Assembly (NCBI GenBank): GCA_009380075.1
Contig: WHSO01000001.1
Coordinates: forward strand, 108,266-172,265
Origin: Alphaproteobacteria bacterium
GTDB lineage: Bacteria > Pseudomonadota > Alphaproteobacteria > SMXQ01
DNA length: 64,000 nucleotides
Direction of reading: 5' to 3'
Program-made: the position numbers and the translations under genes
Notes under the pieces: generated by a model
What the model was told of the DNA's origin: nothing
Seen by the model: the letters and a program-made list of their open reading frames with translations, nothing else
The model's database searches: none
Shown: positions 38,225 to 51,849 of the stretch, in pieces
How positions within the stretch are numbered: the first letter of the stretch is position 1
How the letters are laid out: every line of letters starts with the position of its first letter

Positions 38225-39631
38225 ATGACAGCCCGCGTCCTCGTGGTCGACGACATGCCGGCCAACGTCAAGGTCCTTGAGGCCAAGCTGACAGCCGACT
38301 ACTTCACGGTCGTCACCGCCATGAACGGCGCGGACGCGCTGAAGCTGGCCGTGACCGAATCCCCCGATATCATCCTGCTCGACGTCATGATGCCCGGAAT
38401 GGACGGGTTCGAGGTCTGCCGGCGCCTCAAGACCAGTGCGGACACCGCCCATATTCCCGTCGTCATGGTCACCGCCCTGTCGGACATGTCGGATCGCGTG
38501 ACCGGTCTCGAGGCCGGCGCCGACGATTTCCTCACCAAGCCCGTCAACGACATCACCCTGTTCGCCCGCATCCGTTCGCTGGCGCGCATGAAGCGCGCCA
38601 TGGACGAATGGCGCATGCGCGAGGAGACCTGCGACCGCTTCGGCGTCATGTCGGCCGTCGGCGGCCCCGAGGACGAGGATGCTTCCGGCGCGGCCATCCT
38701 GATCGTCGAACCGGACGAGTATTCCGGCAAGCGCCTGAGCGCCGCCCTGGAGGCCATGAGCCACACGACATCCTGCGTCGAAAACATGGAACAGGCGTTC
38801 GAGACGGTGCGCGAAAAGCCGTTCGATCTCGTCATTTCCAGCCTCTATCTCAGCGACGGCGACGGCCTGCGGCTGACGTCGCAGCTCCGCGCCCGCGAAA
38901 ACACCAAGATCCTTCCGGTGTTGCTGGTGATCGAGCCGGAGGAGATCGGCGGTCTGGCCAAGGGGTTCGACCTCGGCGTCAACGACTACCTCGTGCGCCC
39001 GGTGGACGCCAACGAGCTCAAGGCCCGCACCCGCACGCAACTGCGCCAGAAGCGGTATCGTGAGCGCCTCCAGGACAATTACAAGCGTAGCCTGTCCATG
39101 GCCCTGACCGACGACCTGACCGGCCTTCACAACTACCGCTACCTGTCGGCGCATATCCAGACCGCGTTGCAGAACGCGAAGGAAATTCACAAGCCGATGA
39201 GCATCCTCATGCTCGACCTCGATTTCTTCAAGGCGGTGAACGATACCCACGGCCATGCGGTCGGCGACAACGTGCTCAAGGAGCTGGCGCGGCGCATGAA
39301 CCGCAACCTGCGCGAATTCGACATGCCGGCCCGCGTCGGCGGCGAGGAGTTCGTGGTCATCATGCCGGACTGCGAGCCCGAGATCGCGGTCCGCGTCGCC
39401 GAACGCCTGCGCCACGTCATCGCCGACGAACCGTTCGATGTCGGCGCCGCTGCCGGCCCGCTCAAGATCACCGCGTCGATCGGCATCGCCTGGCCGGAAA
39501 GCGACGCCGTTACCGCGAAGGCCCTGATGGAGGCGGCGGACAAGGCGATCTATGCGGCCAAGGGCAACGGGCGCAATCAGGTGGTGACCCAGGCGGGCAT
39601 AAAGAAAACGCGGCAGATGAGCCTCGGCTGA
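38225..39631 (+). CDS. pleD: Response-regulator diguanylate cyclase PleD (REC-REC-GGDEF)
   Basis: Two receiver domains followed by a GGDEF domain with the active site RVGGEEF and an upstream RxxD-type I-site context. The canonical divK-pleD operon. Confidence 0.88.
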   Translation: MTARVLVVDDMPANVKVLEAKLTADYFTVVTAMNGADALKLAVTESPDIILLDVMMPGMDGFEVCRRLKTSADTAHIPVVMVTALSDMSDRVTGLEAGADDFLTKPVNDITLFARIRSLARMKRAMDEWRMREETCDRFGVMSAVGGPEDEDASGAAILIVEPDEYSGKRLSAALEAMSHTTSCVENMEQAFETVREKPFDLVISSLYLSDGDGLRLTSQLRARENTKILPVLLVIEPEEIGGLAKGFDLGVNDYLVRPVDANELKARTRTQLRQKRYRERLQDNYKRSLSMALTDDLTGLHNYRYLSAHIQTALQNAKEIHKPMSILMLDLDFFKAVNDTHGHAVGDNVLKELARRMNRNLREFDMPARVGGEEFVVIMPDCEPEIAVRVAERLRHVIADEPFDVGAAAGPLKITASIGIAWPESDAVTAKALMEAADKAIYAAKGNGRNQVVTQAGIKKTRQMSLG

Positions 39632-42626: not shown

Positions 42627-43013
42627 TCAATCGTTCCGGCGCACGCCGAGCGCCCATTGCAGGCCGACCAGCGCACCTTTGACCCGCGGCAGTATGGCGA
42701 GCGACAGCGCGAGGGTCAGCGGCATCCACAGTGCCATGTGAACCCAGTCGGCGGGCGAATAAAGCTGTTCGGTCACCAGCATCAGCGGAACCACGATATG
42801 GCCCACGATCAGGATGGTGAAATACATGGGCGCGTCATCCGCGCGGTGCGGCTCGAGCGCCGTCGCACAGGTCCCGCACGACGGCCCGAGCCGTGCGTAG
42901 CCCGTGAACATGCGGCCCTTGCCGCACGCCGGGCAGGCGCCGCGCAAACCGCGCAGCAGCGACGGCAGCCACGGGGCGGGGCGGGGGGTATCCGTTGCAG
43001 GATCGAACGACAT
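42627..43013 (-). CDS. DUF983-family membrane protein (zinc-ribbon plus 2 TM)
   Basis: MSFDPATDTPRPAPWLPSLLRGLRGACPACGKGRMFTGYARLGPSCGTCA… has a CxxC...CxxC motif followed by two hydrophobic helices. Confidence 0.6.
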   Translation of the reverse strand: MSFDPATDTPRPAPWLPSLLRGLRGACPACGKGRMFTGYARLGPSCGTCATALEPHRADDAPMYFTILIVGHIVVPLMLVTEQLYSPADWVHMALWMPLTLALSLAILPRVKGALVGLQWALGVRRND

Positions 43014-43244
43014 GTGAACTCTCAATCGCGATAGCCCAACGCCTAGAGCACTTTTCCCGCGGGCTGAATCACTTTTCGGGCTCGTCATCGCCCTCCCCCG
43101 ATCACGTCGGGGGATCTCCGGGCGATCCAGCAAGTGGATGCCCCGCCTGCGCGGGGCATGACGTTTCAACGTTACGGCAACATATCCCAACATCGACCAT
43201 CGGCGGTGCATTTTAAAGAAATCTCTACCATAAAAACGGCGATT

Positions 43245-48316: not shown

Positions 48317-49447
48317 TCACTCTTGGAAAGCAAGGGAAACTTGCCCTCCCGGGTGGCGCTGGAGCCGCCCGGCCAGCTCCAGCTCGAGCAGGACGAGGGC
48401 GATCTCACGGGCGGCTAAGCCGCTCTGGCGCACGATTTCGTCGATGCCGGCCGGTGCGGTGCCGAGCAGGTTTGAAATAATCTTGCGTACATGATCGGGT
48501 GCCTCGACCGGTTCCGCGAACCCGGCGGCGGACGGGGTCGGTCCCGCCTCTTCCGGCCGGGCGGCCGGGCGCGCCATGAGCCCGCCCAGGGCCTCGATCA
48601 CGTCGTCGGCGCCCTGGACCAGGGTGGCACCGTCGCGGATCAGGCCGTTGGTGCCGCGCGCCCGGGGATCGAGCGGGCTGCCCGGCACCGCCAGCACCTC
48701 GCGTCCCTGTTCGCCGGCGAGCCGCGCGGTGATCAGCGAGCCCGAGCGCAACGTCGCCTCGACCACCACCACCGCCTGCGCCAGGCCGGAAACGATGCGG
48801 TTGCGGTGGGGGAAGTGGCGGGCCGTGGGTTGCTGGCCCCAGGGCATTTCCGACAACACCGTGCCCGTGGCGGCGATGTCGCGGTAGAGCCGCTCGTTGT
48901 CGCGCGGGTAGACGACGTCGACGCCGCCGGCCATGACGGCGATGGTCCCGGTTGCCAGGGCGCCGCGATGGGCGGCGGCGTCGAGGCCGCGGGCGAGGCC
49001 GGAGGCGACGACGAACCCGGCCCGGCCGAGGTCGCGCGCCATCGCCTCGGCGAAACGGACGCCGTTGGCGGAGGCATTGCGGGCACCGACAATGGCGATG
49101 GTCCCGCGCGCCAGGAGTTCAGGCCGGCCGAGAACCGACAGGACCGCCGGGGCGTCGGGCAGGGCGGCCAGAGGCGCCGGATAGTCCGCCTCGCCGAGGA
49201 CGACGAGACGCCCGCCGGCGCGGGCCAGCGTGTCCACCTCCCGTTCGGCGGCGGTGCGCGGACAGACGCGGATGCCGCGGCGCAGGCCACCGAGGCGGGC
49301 GAGATCGGGCAAGGCATCGAGGGCGCTGCCGGCCGAGCCGAAGCGCGCGAGAAGCTGGCGGAAGGAGACCGGGCCGACGTGTTCCGATCGGATCAGGCGC
49401 AGCCGGTCGAGCCGTTCCGCATCGGTGATCGGATGTGCCTCGGCCAT
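48317..49447 (-). CDS. dprA: DNA-processing protein DprA (Smf)
   Basis: Rossmann-like DprA core (…TIAIVGARNASANGVRFAEAMARDLGRAGFVVASGLARGLDAAAHRGAL…) with a C-terminal winged-helix region. The start is at ATG 49447 (MAEAHPITDAER…). Confidence 0.85.
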   Translation of the reverse strand: MAEAHPITDAERLDRLRLIRSEHVGPVSFRQLLARFGSAGSALDALPDLARLGGLRRGIRVCPRTAAEREVDTLARAGGRLVVLGEADYPAPLAALPDAPAVLSVLGRPELLARGTIAIVGARNASANGVRFAEAMARDLGRAGFVVASGLARGLDAAAHRGALATGTIAVMAGGVDVVYPRDNERLYRDIAATGTVLSEMPWGQQPTARHFPHRNRIVSGLAQAVVVVEATLRSGSLITARLAGEQGREVLAVPGSPLDPRARGTNGLIRDGATLVQGADDVIEALGGLMARPAARPEEAGPTPSAAGFAEPVEAPDHVRKIISNLLGTAPAGIDEIVRQSGLAAREIALVLLELELAGRLQRHPGGQVSLAFQE

Positions 49448-49539
49448 GGCCGCAGCCTGCGGCAGCGTGCCCGCCCCGCATATATCCCCTTTACCTATGT
49501 AGCCTGACATGCCATATTAAGTCCATAGGAGGGCTGGAT

Positions 49540-50412
49540 ATGGCCAAGGCGATGACGATTTCTCAATTCTTTCAACGGTTTCCAGACGACGATGCGTGTC
49601 TTGATCACCTGATGAACGTCCGCTATGGCATGGAGGGCGATTGCCCCAAGTGCGGCAAGCACACGAACTGGTCCCGTATCCGCAAGGAGCCTGCCTACCA
49701 GTGCCAGTGGTGCGGCCATCATATTCATCCGATGGCCGGGACCCCCTTCCAGAACACCCGTACGCCGCTCCAGAAGTGGTTCTATGCCATGTTCATGTTC
49801 ACCACGACCCGGAACGGCGTGGCAGCCAAGGAATTGCAGAGGCAGCTTGGAGTGACCTACAAGTGCGCTTGGAGGATGGGCCACGAAATCCGCAAGTATC
49901 TCGCCTACGTTGACGGGGATGCCCCCTTGGGCGGTTCCGGGATCGTGGAAGCGGACAAGGCGTGGATCGGCGGCGTGGCCCCCAAGGAACGGCCCTACGA
50001 AAACAAGTCCATCGTCCTCGGCATGGTCGAACGTGGCGGCGAAGTGATTACCCGGATCGTCAATTCCCGCGCGATGGAAGTCGTCGTTCCCCACGTCCTC
50101 GAAAACGTCAAACCCGGCACCCGCGTCTATACCGATGAGTCCACCACGTTCATGCGCTTGAACGAGGAAGGCTACCGGCACGACTTCATTACCCATGCCG
50201 CCAAGGAATACGTTCGCGGTCCCGTTCATACCAACACCATCGAAGGCTTCTGGGCTGCCCTGAAACGCGGCATCAACGGGACGCACGTATGGGTTTCCAA
50301 GCAGCACCTGGACAAGTATCTCGGTGAGTTTGAATTCCGGTTCAATCTTCGGAAGTCCCCTCACTTGATGTTTGATCTTTTGCTGGCGGCTTTCCCGAGG
50401 CCATCCCGGTAA
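49540..50412 (+). CDS. IS1595-family transposase (N-terminal zinc finger plus DDE domain)
   Basis: RBS AGGAGGG 7 nt upstream of the ATG. Product begins MAKAMTISQFFQRFPDDDACLDHLMNVRYGMEGDCPKCGKHTNWSRIRKEPAYQCQWCGHH… and contains WKRAIN-type DDE core regions (…YTDESTTF…, …HTNTIEGFWAALKRGINGTH…). Confidence 0.85.
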   Translation: MAKAMTISQFFQRFPDDDACLDHLMNVRYGMEGDCPKCGKHTNWSRIRKEPAYQCQWCGHHIHPMAGTPFQNTRTPLQKWFYAMFMFTTTRNGVAAKELQRQLGVTYKCAWRMGHEIRKYLAYVDGDAPLGGSGIVEADKAWIGGVAPKERPYENKSIVLGMVERGGEVITRIVNSRAMEVVVPHVLENVKPGTRVYTDESTTFMRLNEEGYRHDFITHAAKEYVRGPVHTNTIEGFWAALKRGINGTHVWVSKQHLDKYLGEFEFRFNLRKSPHLMFDLLLAAFPRPSR

Positions 50413-50536
50413 GCAGTTTGTCGAAGCGGCGCGTTTCGGTTTTCGCCGGATGCTCCTTCGCAAACTCTTTCAGCTTCCCGAGCTTGCGGGCTTCTTCAAG
50501 GGAGAGGTATTTACCTTGCGCCATTTTGTGACTCAC
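50342..50536 (-). CDS. Hypothetical 64-aa passenger protein. Its 3' 71 nt are antisense to the transposase 3' end.
   Basis: MSHKMAQGKYLSLEEARKLGKLKEFAKEHPAKTETRRFDKLL… is a helical-looking N-terminal part and a low-complexity C-terminus. Its start overlaps the stop of the upstream 197-aa gene by 26 nt on the same strand. Only the first ~40 codons lie outside the transposase. Confidence 0.35.
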   Translation of the reverse strand: MSHKMAQGKYLSLEEARKLGKLKEFAKEHPAKTETRRFDKLLTGMASGKPPAKDQTSSEGTSED

Positions 50537-51104
50537 TCTTTTCCCAAATCTTTTCGTAGGAATTCCAAAGTTCAGAAAACGCTTCGGGGTGTCTGCTTCT
50601 AGAAATCCTTATAGATGGACGCCGATCTCTACGAGAAAACGGCATTGCTATTTCCAGATGTGCGAACGCGTTTTTCCCAGATGGGTCTGCAATCCACCAT
50701 GAATAGCCAATGAATTCACTGTACCATTTGACTTGAATGCCTTTCTCAATCGCCATTTGTGTCACTTCCCGTATTTGGTCACGGATTGACATGCCGTCCG
50801 GGAGCGAACTTTCAAAACATTTCAAAGATGCACTATCGGGATTCGGCAGTATCAGACGTTTTATTTTTTCAAGCTGTTCTCCGGATTGGAATTGTTTACG
50901 CCCTGCAACCCAAAAAACATGCGCTTCCGTAACTCGCCGCAATTCATCCGTGAGCGGGCGTATGCGATCAAGGCCGTGCCTATCTGGATAAAACTCAACT
51001 CCCGTAATACCTCGCCGCAGGGCCATCAGCAGCCACCATAGCCATCGGAACGGTAGCCACTCGAATATCGTCCGCCAGAATGCCTCGCCTTTTTCGCCCG
51101 ACAT
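50511..51104 (-). CDS. Hypothetical 197-aa membrane-anchored passenger protein of unknown function
   Basis: ATG at 51104 preceded by GGGGGAAAGAG. One N-terminal TM helix (WRTIFEWLPFRWLWWLLMAL), then a soluble domain of about 160 aa (…FYPDRHGLDRIRPLTDELRRVTEAHVFWVAGRK… and …GIQVKWYSEFIGYSWWIADPSGKNAFAHLEIAMPF…). I recognise no family for it. GC is about 48%, against about 66% for the genome. Confidence 0.55.
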   Translation of the reverse strand: MSGEKGEAFWRTIFEWLPFRWLWWLLMALRRGITGVEFYPDRHGLDRIRPLTDELRRVTEAHVFWVAGRKQFQSGEQLEKIKRLILPNPDSASLKCFESSLPDGMSIRDQIREVTQMAIEKGIQVKWYSEFIGYSWWIADPSGKNAFAHLEIAMPFSRRDRRPSIRISRSRHPEAFSELWNSYEKIWEKSESQNGAR

Positions 51105-51237
51105 GACTCTTTCCCCCACGCGCCCCATGCGCTACGGGCTAGATACCACCATCGGGGGCCTTTGTACATAGCCCAAGGGGATATATGCGGCCCGCCCTGT
51201 CAAGAACGAAAAGTGAACAGATGGGGCAGACGCGCCC

Positions 51238-51849
51238 TCAACCCTTGCGGCGGCCGATCCGGAGCTCGGTCCCCTGCCACAGGCGCACGATATTGGCGTT
51301 GTGGCGGACGATCACCAGAAGAGCCAGGGCCGCGGCGACCATCGACAGGAACGGGCCGGAGAACATCCAGGCGAGGGCGGGCAGGGAGGCCATGCTCACC
51401 AGGGCGGCGAGGGAGGAATAGCGCGACAGCGCCGCCACCGCGGCCCAGACCAGGAGCGCGACCACCGCTGCCGGCCAGCAGGCGGCGATCATCACGCCGT
51501 AGGTGGTGGCGACGCCCTTGCCGCCCCTGAAGCCGAGCCAGACCGGGAAGACGTGGCCGAGCACCGCGCCGGCCCCGGCGGCCAGCGCGGCGACGTCGCC
51601 GAAGCGGGCGGCGAGGAGCACCGCTGCCACGCCCTTGGCCGCGTCGAGCAGCAGCGTCGCCGCGGCGATGCCCTTGCGCCCGGTGCGCAGCACGTTGGTG
51701 GCGCCGATGTTGCCCGAGCCCACGTCGCGGATGTCGCCGAGCCCGGCGGCGCGGGTCAGCAGCAGCCCGAACGGAATCGACCCCAGGAGGTAGCCGCCGA
51801 GGAGAGCCGCGAGGACCGGTCCCAAGGCGCCTGCGCCGTCGCCGCCCAT
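51238..51849 (-). CDS. plsY: Glycerol-3-phosphate acyltransferase PlsY
   Basis: …LLGSIPFGLLLTR…GSGNIGATNVLRTGRK… and a polytopic PlsY fold. Confidence 0.9.
   Translation of the reverse strand: MGGDGAGALGPVLAALLGGYLLGSIPFGLLLTRAAGLGDIRDVGSGNIGATNVLRTGRKGIAAATLLLDAAKGVAAVLLAARFGDVAALAAGAGAVLGHVFPVWLGFRGGKGVATTYGVMIAACWPAAVVALLVWAAVAALSRYSSLAALVSMASLPALAWMFSGPFLSMVAAALALLVIVRHNANIVRLWQGTELRIGRRKG

Follow-up and report, generated by a model that had tools for sequence, protein, structure and literature searches.

We describe a cargo-carrying insertion sequence (IS) of the IS1595 family that lies between plsY and dprA in a 64,000-nucleotide (nt) stretch of an alphaproteobacterial contig (WHSO01000001.1, positions 108,266 to 172,265; hereafter the window), and we present evidence that the clade to which it belongs directs its insertions to a nearly fixed position beside LexA boxes. 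The window element is an intact IS1595-family 'transporter IS' flanked by an 8-bp target-site duplication. We put the probability of the combined reading, that is, this identity of the element together with box-directed insertion by its clade, at about 0.85.

Element ends and LexA boxes

About 60 relatives were taken into the comparison. Genome contigs were scanned for the exact 15-nt end CGCATATATCCCCTT and metagenome contigs for a slightly extended form of it, and the counts of ends and elements given here are among the matches listed, sampled by the exact 15-nt end motif. At 28 of the 86 unique ends among these matches an exact GTTC-N7-GTTC, the reported LexA-binding motif of Alphaproteobacteria (PMC4951493), ended 13-16 nt outside the IS; the distance was 14 nt in 20 cases, 15 nt in seven and 16 nt in one, and with one mismatch allowed a box was present at 33/86 ends. 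The box density in the same loci (6.2e-5 per nt) gives an expectation of about 0.02 such ends, and none of the 101 control sites, which were chance 15-mer matches in unrelated genomes, had a box at that distance. Since just one of the two ends of an element can face a box, the fraction per insertion is higher than the fraction per end. Among the 24 complete elements in the matches listed, 11 have an exact box at 14-15 nt and another five have a box with one mismatch at the same distance.

When the flanks were aligned, only the two GTTC blocks were conserved, together with a weak T/C-G preference before each of them; neither the 6-nt spacer nor the duplicated 8 bp showed conservation. The end that faces the box was the cargo-side terminal inverted repeat (IRR) in 15 cases and the transposase-side repeat (IRL) in 10, and there is therefore no orientation preference. 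The two half-sites have their centres 11 bp from each other, and a further 11 bp or so separates the second centre from the middle of the duplicated 8 bp; the target would thus share a helix face with them, at the place expected of a third half-site. No LexA box, which might have pointed to SOS control of the transposase, was found inside 23 of the 24 complete elements. The idea that the box is itself part of the element was rejected, as the box is present in empty sites and beside host SOS genes.

The genes that adjoin these boxes are in large part those of the SOS response. In 14 unique cases recA begins some 150 nt away from the IS; at least five cases have lexA as neighbour and one has uvrA, and three fall in the plsY-dprA spacer. 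Two further cases, in which the element lies on the opposite side of the box, adjoin recN and a PA0069-family (splB-like) radical S-adenosylmethionine (SAM) gene; the splB-type radical-SAM group has been reported as LexA-regulated, Alphaproteobacteria included (PMC4951493). RecA, UvrA, RecN and rSAM_PA0069 were confirmed by NCBIfam, and LexA was recognised in its sequence by eye. The targeted boxes are thus found where SOS promoters are located, upstream of recA, lexA, uvrA, recN and the splB-like radical-SAM gene, and they probably bind LexA in these uncultured hosts. At recA and lexA the element sits upstream of the operator, away from the gene, whereas at dprA and uvrA it sits between operator and gene, which indicates that the side of insertion is set by the polarity of the box and not by the gene. 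One relative, L005:3001-3873 (JGI 3300037760; transposase 89% identical), has a box at 15 nt with no recognisable SOS gene adjoining and thiC nearby; either an operator has escaped annotation here, or targeting needs no more than the motif.

Copies of the clade were also seen stacked on one another, divided only by the newest 8-bp duplication, at L055:1-2648 and at L157:11940-12000/L172 (the same contig, MRWG01000290.1), and at L065:1900-4100 copies lie end to end, again divided only by an 8-bp duplication. IS stacking at one box is likewise present in L004. In the stacks the copy nearest the box is the newest. Stacking at one box places the determinant on the box side and implies repeated homing.

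Several observations weigh against this reading or limit its reach. Among the 24 complete elements, two (L056 and L162) have the box on the opposite side, at 13 nt, four (L139, L143, L166 and L022, the last with a box at 22 nt) lack one where it would be expected, and L065 and L190 are flanked by IS ends on both sides only, so that the specificity for the box is strong and not absolute. Some of the insertions upstream of recA or lexA may be orthologous and not independent, and both the binding of LexA to the boxes and the transposition of the element are computational predictions. No box was found at two distant plasmid relatives, whose transposases are 45-50% identical and whose termini differ; the trait may for this reason be confined to the clade with CGCATATATCCCCTT ends.

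It could also be argued that insertion is essentially random and that copies near SOS boxes merely survive at harmless intergenic sites, given that any IS copy observed in a genome has passed through selection and that, ahead of the recA and lexA operators, an insertion may plausibly be neutral. Yet selection cannot give single-nucleotide precision relative to a 15-bp motif (14 nt in 20/28), this precision holds across at least five gene contexts and both IS orientations, and at dprA and uvrA the element sits between operator and gene, which is not obviously neutral. We therefore regard survival at harmless sites as a highly improbable source of the pattern.

Repeated insertion into the plsY-dprA spacer

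Two other genomes carry a related element between dprA and plsY. In L008, an NCBI metagenome-assembled genome, its transposase is 82% identical to that of the window, its orientation is the same and its cargo is different; in L004 (JGI 3300037722) the transposase is 93% identical and the orientation is opposite. The box of the window, GTTCACTTTTCGTTC, is the direct repeat GTTC-N7-GTTC of alphaproteobacterial LexA operators, the duplicated 8 bp begins 6 nt after it, and the same box stands at the same distance in L004, in L008 and in the empty sites. Read on the dprA strand, the duplication that follows GTTCACTTTTCGTTCTTGACA is GGGCGGGC in the window, where IRR faces the box, GGGTCGCG in L004 and TGCGCACCC, written GGGTGCGC(A), in L008; the three duplications differ between genomes and match within each genome. 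The last four bases of the L004 duplication, CGCG, are the first four bases of a neighbouring unrelated IS. Because the duplication includes 4 nt of that IS, the L004 copy must have arrived after it, and although later it still inserted immediately after TTGACA. Judged by their duplications, the insertions in the window, L008 and L004 are separate events and not one inherited insertion.

The divergence of the three transposases (93% and 82% identity) parallels that of PlsY (96% and 87%) and, taken alone, would fit vertical descent. A single ancient insertion between plsY and dprA, inherited by the three lineages without any targeting, would account for this tracking of host PlsY and DprA identity (96%; 87% and 83%) and for the shared position of all three copies. 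It would not account for three duplications that differ from one another while each matches its own partner perfectly, for the inverted L004 copy with a duplication that holds 4 nt of an IS absent elsewhere, for cargo that is completely different between copies, for an empty site in a relative with 99% identical DprA, or for the same geometry at recA, lexA and uvrA in unrelated genomes. A single inherited insertion is already contradicted by the present data and we give it very little credence.

That the insertion was recent had been proposed in the preliminary description of the element, and this proved right. DprA homologues were collected and their contigs fetched, and L194, L195 (metagenomic, DprA 99% identical) and L196 (89%) were found to have a short, empty plsY-dprA spacer, of just the length to be predicted, in which GTTCACTTTTCGTTCTTGACA is followed by one 8-mer and then by the sequence that precedes dprA in the window. 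The empty sites of L195 and L196 carry this single 8-mer at the position of the duplication, and the window without its element and one copy of the duplication has a spacer of exactly the length found in L196. With the site still empty in a relative whose DprA is 99% identical, the insertion in the window is recent. Relatives whose DprA is 83-99% identical have kept the box; in those with 75% identical DprA the gene order is kept and the GTTC repeat is absent.

With the element removed, the spacer reads box, TTGACA, 17 nt, CAGGCT, 6 nt, ATG, a layout that would fit a weak and possibly leaderless dprA promoter overlapped by an operator. TTGACA is kept both where the site is empty (L195, L196) and where it is occupied (L004, L008). 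As the insertion directly follows TTGACA, this putative promoter would be split, and dprA would then need read-through over 1.7 kb or a new start. An effect of the element on dprA expression is plausible because the box and TTGACA are now separated from the gene; disruption at dprA seems to be tolerated, as two other lineages are occupied at the same site. To our knowledge, dprA has not been documented as a member of the SOS regulon.

Some further features of this locus may be mentioned. The spacer of L004 contains a second, unrelated IS1595-family IS (L004:4884-6091; transposase of 279 amino acids (aa), 34% identical to that of the window) with ends CGCGATTGTATACTT and duplication GACAGGGT, located 4 nt nearer the LexA box than the main element, and two IS1595 lineages have therefore inserted within the same 12 bp. 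Close relatives differ much more in the roughly 12 nt after TTGACA, which span the position of the duplication and 4 nt more, than in the remainder of the spacer, with six differences between the window and the relative with 99% identical DprA (compared were window 51186-51203, L195:1130-1290, L196:2050-2230, L008 and L004); these differences may be footprints of repeated insertion and loss. The mechanically called dprA open reading frame (ORF) of the window runs 21 codons upstream to an ATG at 49510 (minus strand), inside IRL, and the insertion has therefore created an in-frame N-terminal extension of dprA that automatic annotators could call. Exact GTTC-N7-GTTC boxes occur twice in the window, against 2.3 predicted by chance; the only other one, GTTCACATGTCGTTC at 43005-43019 (minus strand), is unoccupied and overlaps a possible start ATG in a minus-strand ORF.

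Anatomy of the element and its cargo

The features of the element and its surroundings are collected in Table 1. The preliminary description had recognised the pair of 26-bp inverted copies that bracket the element, and the same arms, 49476-49501 and 51165-51190, came out as the top-scoring inverted repeat within 49300-51400 (26 nt, 88% complementary). It had also placed a 6-bp repeat, CCCGCC, outside these arms. CCCGCC is indeed present, as part of a longer repeat: one ambiguous C/G pair had been counted into the inverted repeat, and when the boundary is moved by 1 base the termini become CGCATATAT...ATATATGCG and the flanks a perfect 8-bp duplication, GCCCGCCC. The related copies have these termini throughout. 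The caveat that so short a repeat might be coincidence falls away with a perfect duplication of the length typical of the family. The insertion had been put 28 bp upstream of the dprA start, which is the distance from the original repeat boundary and becomes 29 nt from the revised end. A fall in GC from about 66% within the element had been noted as well; the fall is real, with a host level nearer 72-75% (flanks 0.69-0.79, transposase gene 0.54-0.64, the remaining 0.75 kb of cargo 0.42-0.57). The view that the element interrupts a block of core genes holds, the order pyrB-pyrC-plsY-dprA-topA-rnr being otherwise syntenic.

Table 1. Features of the IS1595-family element and of the plsY-dprA locus (positions are those of the window)
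Feature	Position	Strand	Remarks
IS1595-family transporter IS, complete, 1,713 bp	49477..51189	+	termini CGCATATAT...ATATATGCG
IRL, transposase-side terminal inverted repeat CGCATATATCCCCTTTACCTATGTA	49477..49501	+	core CGCATATATCCCCTT common to all relatives collected
IRR, cargo-side terminal inverted repeat, inward reading CGCATATATCCCCTTGGGCTATGTA	51165..51189	-	22/25 positions as in IRL
Target-site duplication, left copy, 8 bp GCCCGCCC	49469..49476	.	identical to right copy
Target-site duplication, right copy, 8 bp GCCCGCCC	51190..51197	.	identical to left copy
Transposase, 290 aa, zinc ribbon plus IS1595/ISXO2-type DDE	49540..50412	+	NCBIfam, Pfam; single uninterrupted ORF
ORF B, 60 aa, starts MAQGKYLSLEEARKLGKLKEFAKEH	50342..50524	-	convergent with transposase gene, overlapping its 3' end by ~70 nt
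ORF A, 205 aa (NCBI annotation 197 aa from MSGEKGE)	50511..51128	-	hydrophobic N-terminus plus ~160-aa uncharacterised domain
LexA-box motif GTTCACTTTTCGTTC	51204..51218	-	perfect GTTC-N7-GTTC; ends 14 nt from IS end
TTGACA hexamer (-35-like)	51198..51203	- (dprA strand)	adjoins duplication; 1.7 kb from dprA at present
dprA, 376 aa	48317..49447	-	Pfam DprA_N, DNA_processg_A, DprA_WH; start codon 29 nt from IS end
plsY, 203 aa, upstream neighbour	51238..51849	-	Pfam G3P_acyltransf

The element has the hallmarks of its family. Its terminal arms of 25 nt match at 22 positions, and the 15-nt core is conserved in all relatives. A perfect 8-bp duplication flanks 23 of the 24 complete clade elements, the window one included, the sole exception being L008 with 9 bp. 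The 64-kb window contains exactly two copies of the 16-mer core of the inverted repeat, CCGCATATATCCCCTT, one on each strand, and with up to three mismatches the core has three matches against 0.29 expected; the additional one, CCGCATAGATCGCCTT at 39542-39557 (minus strand, two mismatches), has no partner or nearby transposase and is probably due to chance. Neither an Rfam scan of 49000-51600 nor a consensus promoter scan of 49300-51400 gave an RNA family match or a sigma-70 promoter, respectively, and two terminator-like matches in the latter region were at chance level.

An IS1595-type transposase with zinc finger and DDE domain had been predicted within the repeats, and NCBIfam and Pfam domains bear this out for an intact protein: NF033547 (IS1595 family) scored 177 bits against a cut-off of 75, PF12760 (Zn_ribbon_IS1595) 34 bits and PF12762 (DDE_Tnp_IS1595) 125 bits. 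Its ATG is preceded at about 8 nt by AGGAGGG, and it is full length against homologues that are 82-93% identical. An exact look-up of its sequence found none on record. The plasmid relatives carry only the name 'IS1595 family transposase' from the NCBI Prokaryotic Genome Annotation Pipeline (PGAP).

The unit had further been described as one that moves cargo and not as a minimal IS, and with about 0.75 kb of extra DNA it is properly called a transporter IS: ORF A lies within the inverted repeats and the duplication, unrelated ORFs fill the same slot in the 23 other complete elements, and clade members are 1.7-2.8 kb long, compared with about 1 kb for a minimal IS1595 member. Of the two opposite-strand ORFs that had been taken as passengers, both are present and ORF A is cargo, whereas ORF B is a conserved gene of the clade. 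Homologues of ORF B occur in 15 of the 24 complete elements, always directly downstream of the transposase gene and antisense to it, in most cases with an overlap of its end. Over its 11 best-conserved codons we counted 332 synonymous versus 106 non-synonymous codon-pair differences, including switches between TCN and AGY serine codons, and this excess of synonymous differences shows that ORF B is a real protein. An AlphaFold2 (AF2) model from the single sequence predicts three short helices and a disordered tail, with a predicted local distance difference test score (pLDDT) of 72, and searches of Pfam, NCBIfam, PADLOC, PHROG and PDB sequences gave no match. On this pattern of conservation, ORF B is a core accessory gene of the IS clade and not cargo.

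ORF A is the sole variable cargo gene of the window element. The slot between ORF B and IRR differs in every element, with ORFs of 146-464 aa, most of which have hydrophobic N-termini (judged by eye) and 18 of 20 of which have no Pfam family. Among 5.8e9 proteins only three word-sharing homologues of ORF A were found, two of them non-self, while a profile search retrieved 650 representatives of its ~160-aa domain; no credible Pfam match to this domain was seen in the 10 relatives checked. The only exact match to ORF A was this locus in a different assembly (L001). Pfam, NCBIfam, PADLOC and PHROGs gave nothing usable for ORF A, and a PDB sequence search gave only noise. The AF2 model from a three-sequence alignment reached a pLDDT of 56. 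A phospholipase D (PLD)-like/TrmB C-terminal fold was not assigned, since the best Foldseek hit to that pLDDT-56 model had an E-value of 6.6e-3 and a template-modelling (TM) score of 0.3; the HxK(x)4D (HKD) motif was not found in the ORF A alignment, and we take this weak predicted resemblance as a lead only.

A homologue of ORF A (66% identical) is present at L002:7-790 (European Nucleotide Archive (ENA) ERZ23498363) in a 784-bp cassette with 52-nt inverted repeats of different sequence, which has no transposase and resembles a mobile insertion cassette; just inside it is a degenerate remnant, CCCCTTGATGTACGG, resembling the IRR of the clade. Its presence in a different cassette fits the view of ORF A as a gene that travels on mobile DNA. 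The two exceptions to the absence of Pfam families among cargo ORFs are an IrrE/ImmA-type peptidase in L065 (1970-4037; Peptidase_M78, E 7e-21) and a small protein with a weak WYL match in L142 (6678-9494; 19.6 bits against a cut-off of 21.8, E 1e-3), and both types have associations with DNA damage or phage regulation.

One may ask whether the window copy is instead a dead relic that lies here by chance, its extra DNA being unrelated junk and not cargo. Its exact transposase sequence has no record as a called gene and ORF A belongs to no known family. Nonetheless, the transposase is of full length and its domains are covered completely, a perfect duplication flanks the element and the site is empty in a near-identical relative, ORF B is under purifying selection, and ORF A has full-length homologues at 66% and 37% identity and a domain family of 650 members. 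In view of these features a relic seems to us very unlikely, and we retain the interpretation of an intact, cargo-carrying IS.

Recognition of the box and its implications

The element is built of IRL, transposase gene, opposite-strand ORF B, one variable cargo slot and IRR, and we envisage that it moves by DDE transposition in which the cuts are staggered by 8 bp. Members of the clade insert so that the duplicated 8 bp normally starts 6 nt past the 3' end of GTTC-N7-GTTC, which puts the middle of the target roughly a helical turn past the second half-site, and either IS end can face the box; the window copy landed in this way at the LexA box before dprA, parting the box and TTGACA from the gene. 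The benefit to the IS may be a conserved, multi-copy and mostly harmless intergenic landing site, possibly one coupled to SOS transcription. Read-through from damage-inducible promoters into the element would be possible in some orientations, and in the window ORF A and ORF B are sense-oriented when read from the box side.

As to how the box is recognised, we slightly favour docking on the LexA-operator complex over direct reading of the DNA, and consider its chances to be close to even. This preference stems from the 290-aa transposase, which has no spare domain (zinc ribbon, helix-turn-helix region and DDE domain together fill its length), from the IS ends ATATCCCCTT, which share nothing with the GTTC box, and from the few insertions that lie across the box at almost equal spacing. 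It may be that operator-bound LexA is the landmark itself and that the transpososome, docked beside the LexA dimer at a distance of one helical turn, integrates at that point, a specific form of docking that we put forward tentatively and not without doubt.

Alternatively, proteins of the element, either the zinc-ribbon/helix-turn-helix region of the transposase or ORF B, might read the box directly without a host factor, as most bacterial target-specific transposons use a DNA-binding protein of their own. The targeted boxes are almost all exact consensus, and ORF B is conserved and predicted to be a small helical protein, both of which would suit this explanation. On the other hand, with IS ends so unlike GTTC, two specificities would have to reside in a single small DNA-binding region; L033, L108 and L183 are box-associated elements without ORF B, which makes ORF B dispensable in cis for box targeting; and occasional insertions (L056, L162) are found beyond the opposite end of the box with much the same spacing. 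These arguments do not decide the matter, and we rate direct reading as somewhat short of an even chance.

IS1595 members with passenger genes have been termed 'transporter IS' (tIS; Siguier, Gagnevin and Chandler 2009, cited in PMC3129680). As far as that citing source describes them, the present clade is like tIS in its single zinc-ribbon/DDE transposase, short inverted repeats, 8-bp duplication and non-transposition genes inside, and unlike them in its conserved antisense accessory ORF and its one hypervariable slot, filled mostly by orphans with hydrophobic N-termini. In the literature searched we found no description of target specificity in the IS1595 family, and in the full-text literature searched, with most subscription journals outside it, no report of LexA-box-directed insertion. 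It appears that a cargo-carrying IS1595 element is an already described category and that homing to SOS boxes is undescribed. The IS1595 subgroups in ISfinder include ISPna2, ISNwi1 and ISSod11, and IS1595 elements are usually regarded as unselective.

Targeted insertion itself has several precedents. Tn7 has a dedicated element-encoded target selector, TnsD, a heteromeric transposase and one attTn7 site per genome; like Tn7 at attTn7, the present clade is found at a fixed distance from a conserved chromosomal sequence, in a 'safe' intergenic position available in nearly every host genome, but it has a one-protein transposase and a motif that occurs at many sites per genome, those of the SOS regulon. 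IS1397 and ISKpn1 target the palindromes of repetitive extragenic palindromic (REP) sequences and bacterial interspersed mosaic elements (BIME), and the IS1111-attC group targets integron attC sites. As in those cases, a short, dispersed and functional DNA motif is recognised here and not a unique site; REP- and attC-targeting IS belong to other families with other chemistries and insert inside their motif, whereas here insertion takes place beside the operator, which is left intact. In eukaryotes, Ty3 and Ty1 integrate at fixed distances from RNA polymerase III promoters via bound transcription factors. If LexA does mediate targeting, the clade would resemble them in using a DNA-bound host regulator as a landmark with nucleotide-precise spacing, although Ty3 and Ty1 are eukaryotic retroelements and this is a bacterial IS.

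In summary, a simple IS with one protein and insertions at a nucleotide-precise spacing from the operator of a transcription factor would represent a new way in which bacterial DDE transposons choose their targets, and suggests a compact natural scaffold for operator-directed integration. Should LexA docking be true, it would be a bacterial counterpart of Ty3/TFIIIB targeting, would offer the element a conserved, multi-copy safe haven, and would place orphan, mostly membrane-anchored cargo beside, and sometimes downstream of, DNA-damage-inducible promoters. In the window, 1.7 kb of foreign DNA cuts dprA off from its upstream box and -35-like hexamer. More generally, such elements land time and again at the promoters of recA, lexA, uvrA and dprA in uncultured Alphaproteobacteria and will disturb regulon reconstructions and promoter alignments there, and the variable cargo slot brings orphan genes next to promoters that would be induced by DNA damage.

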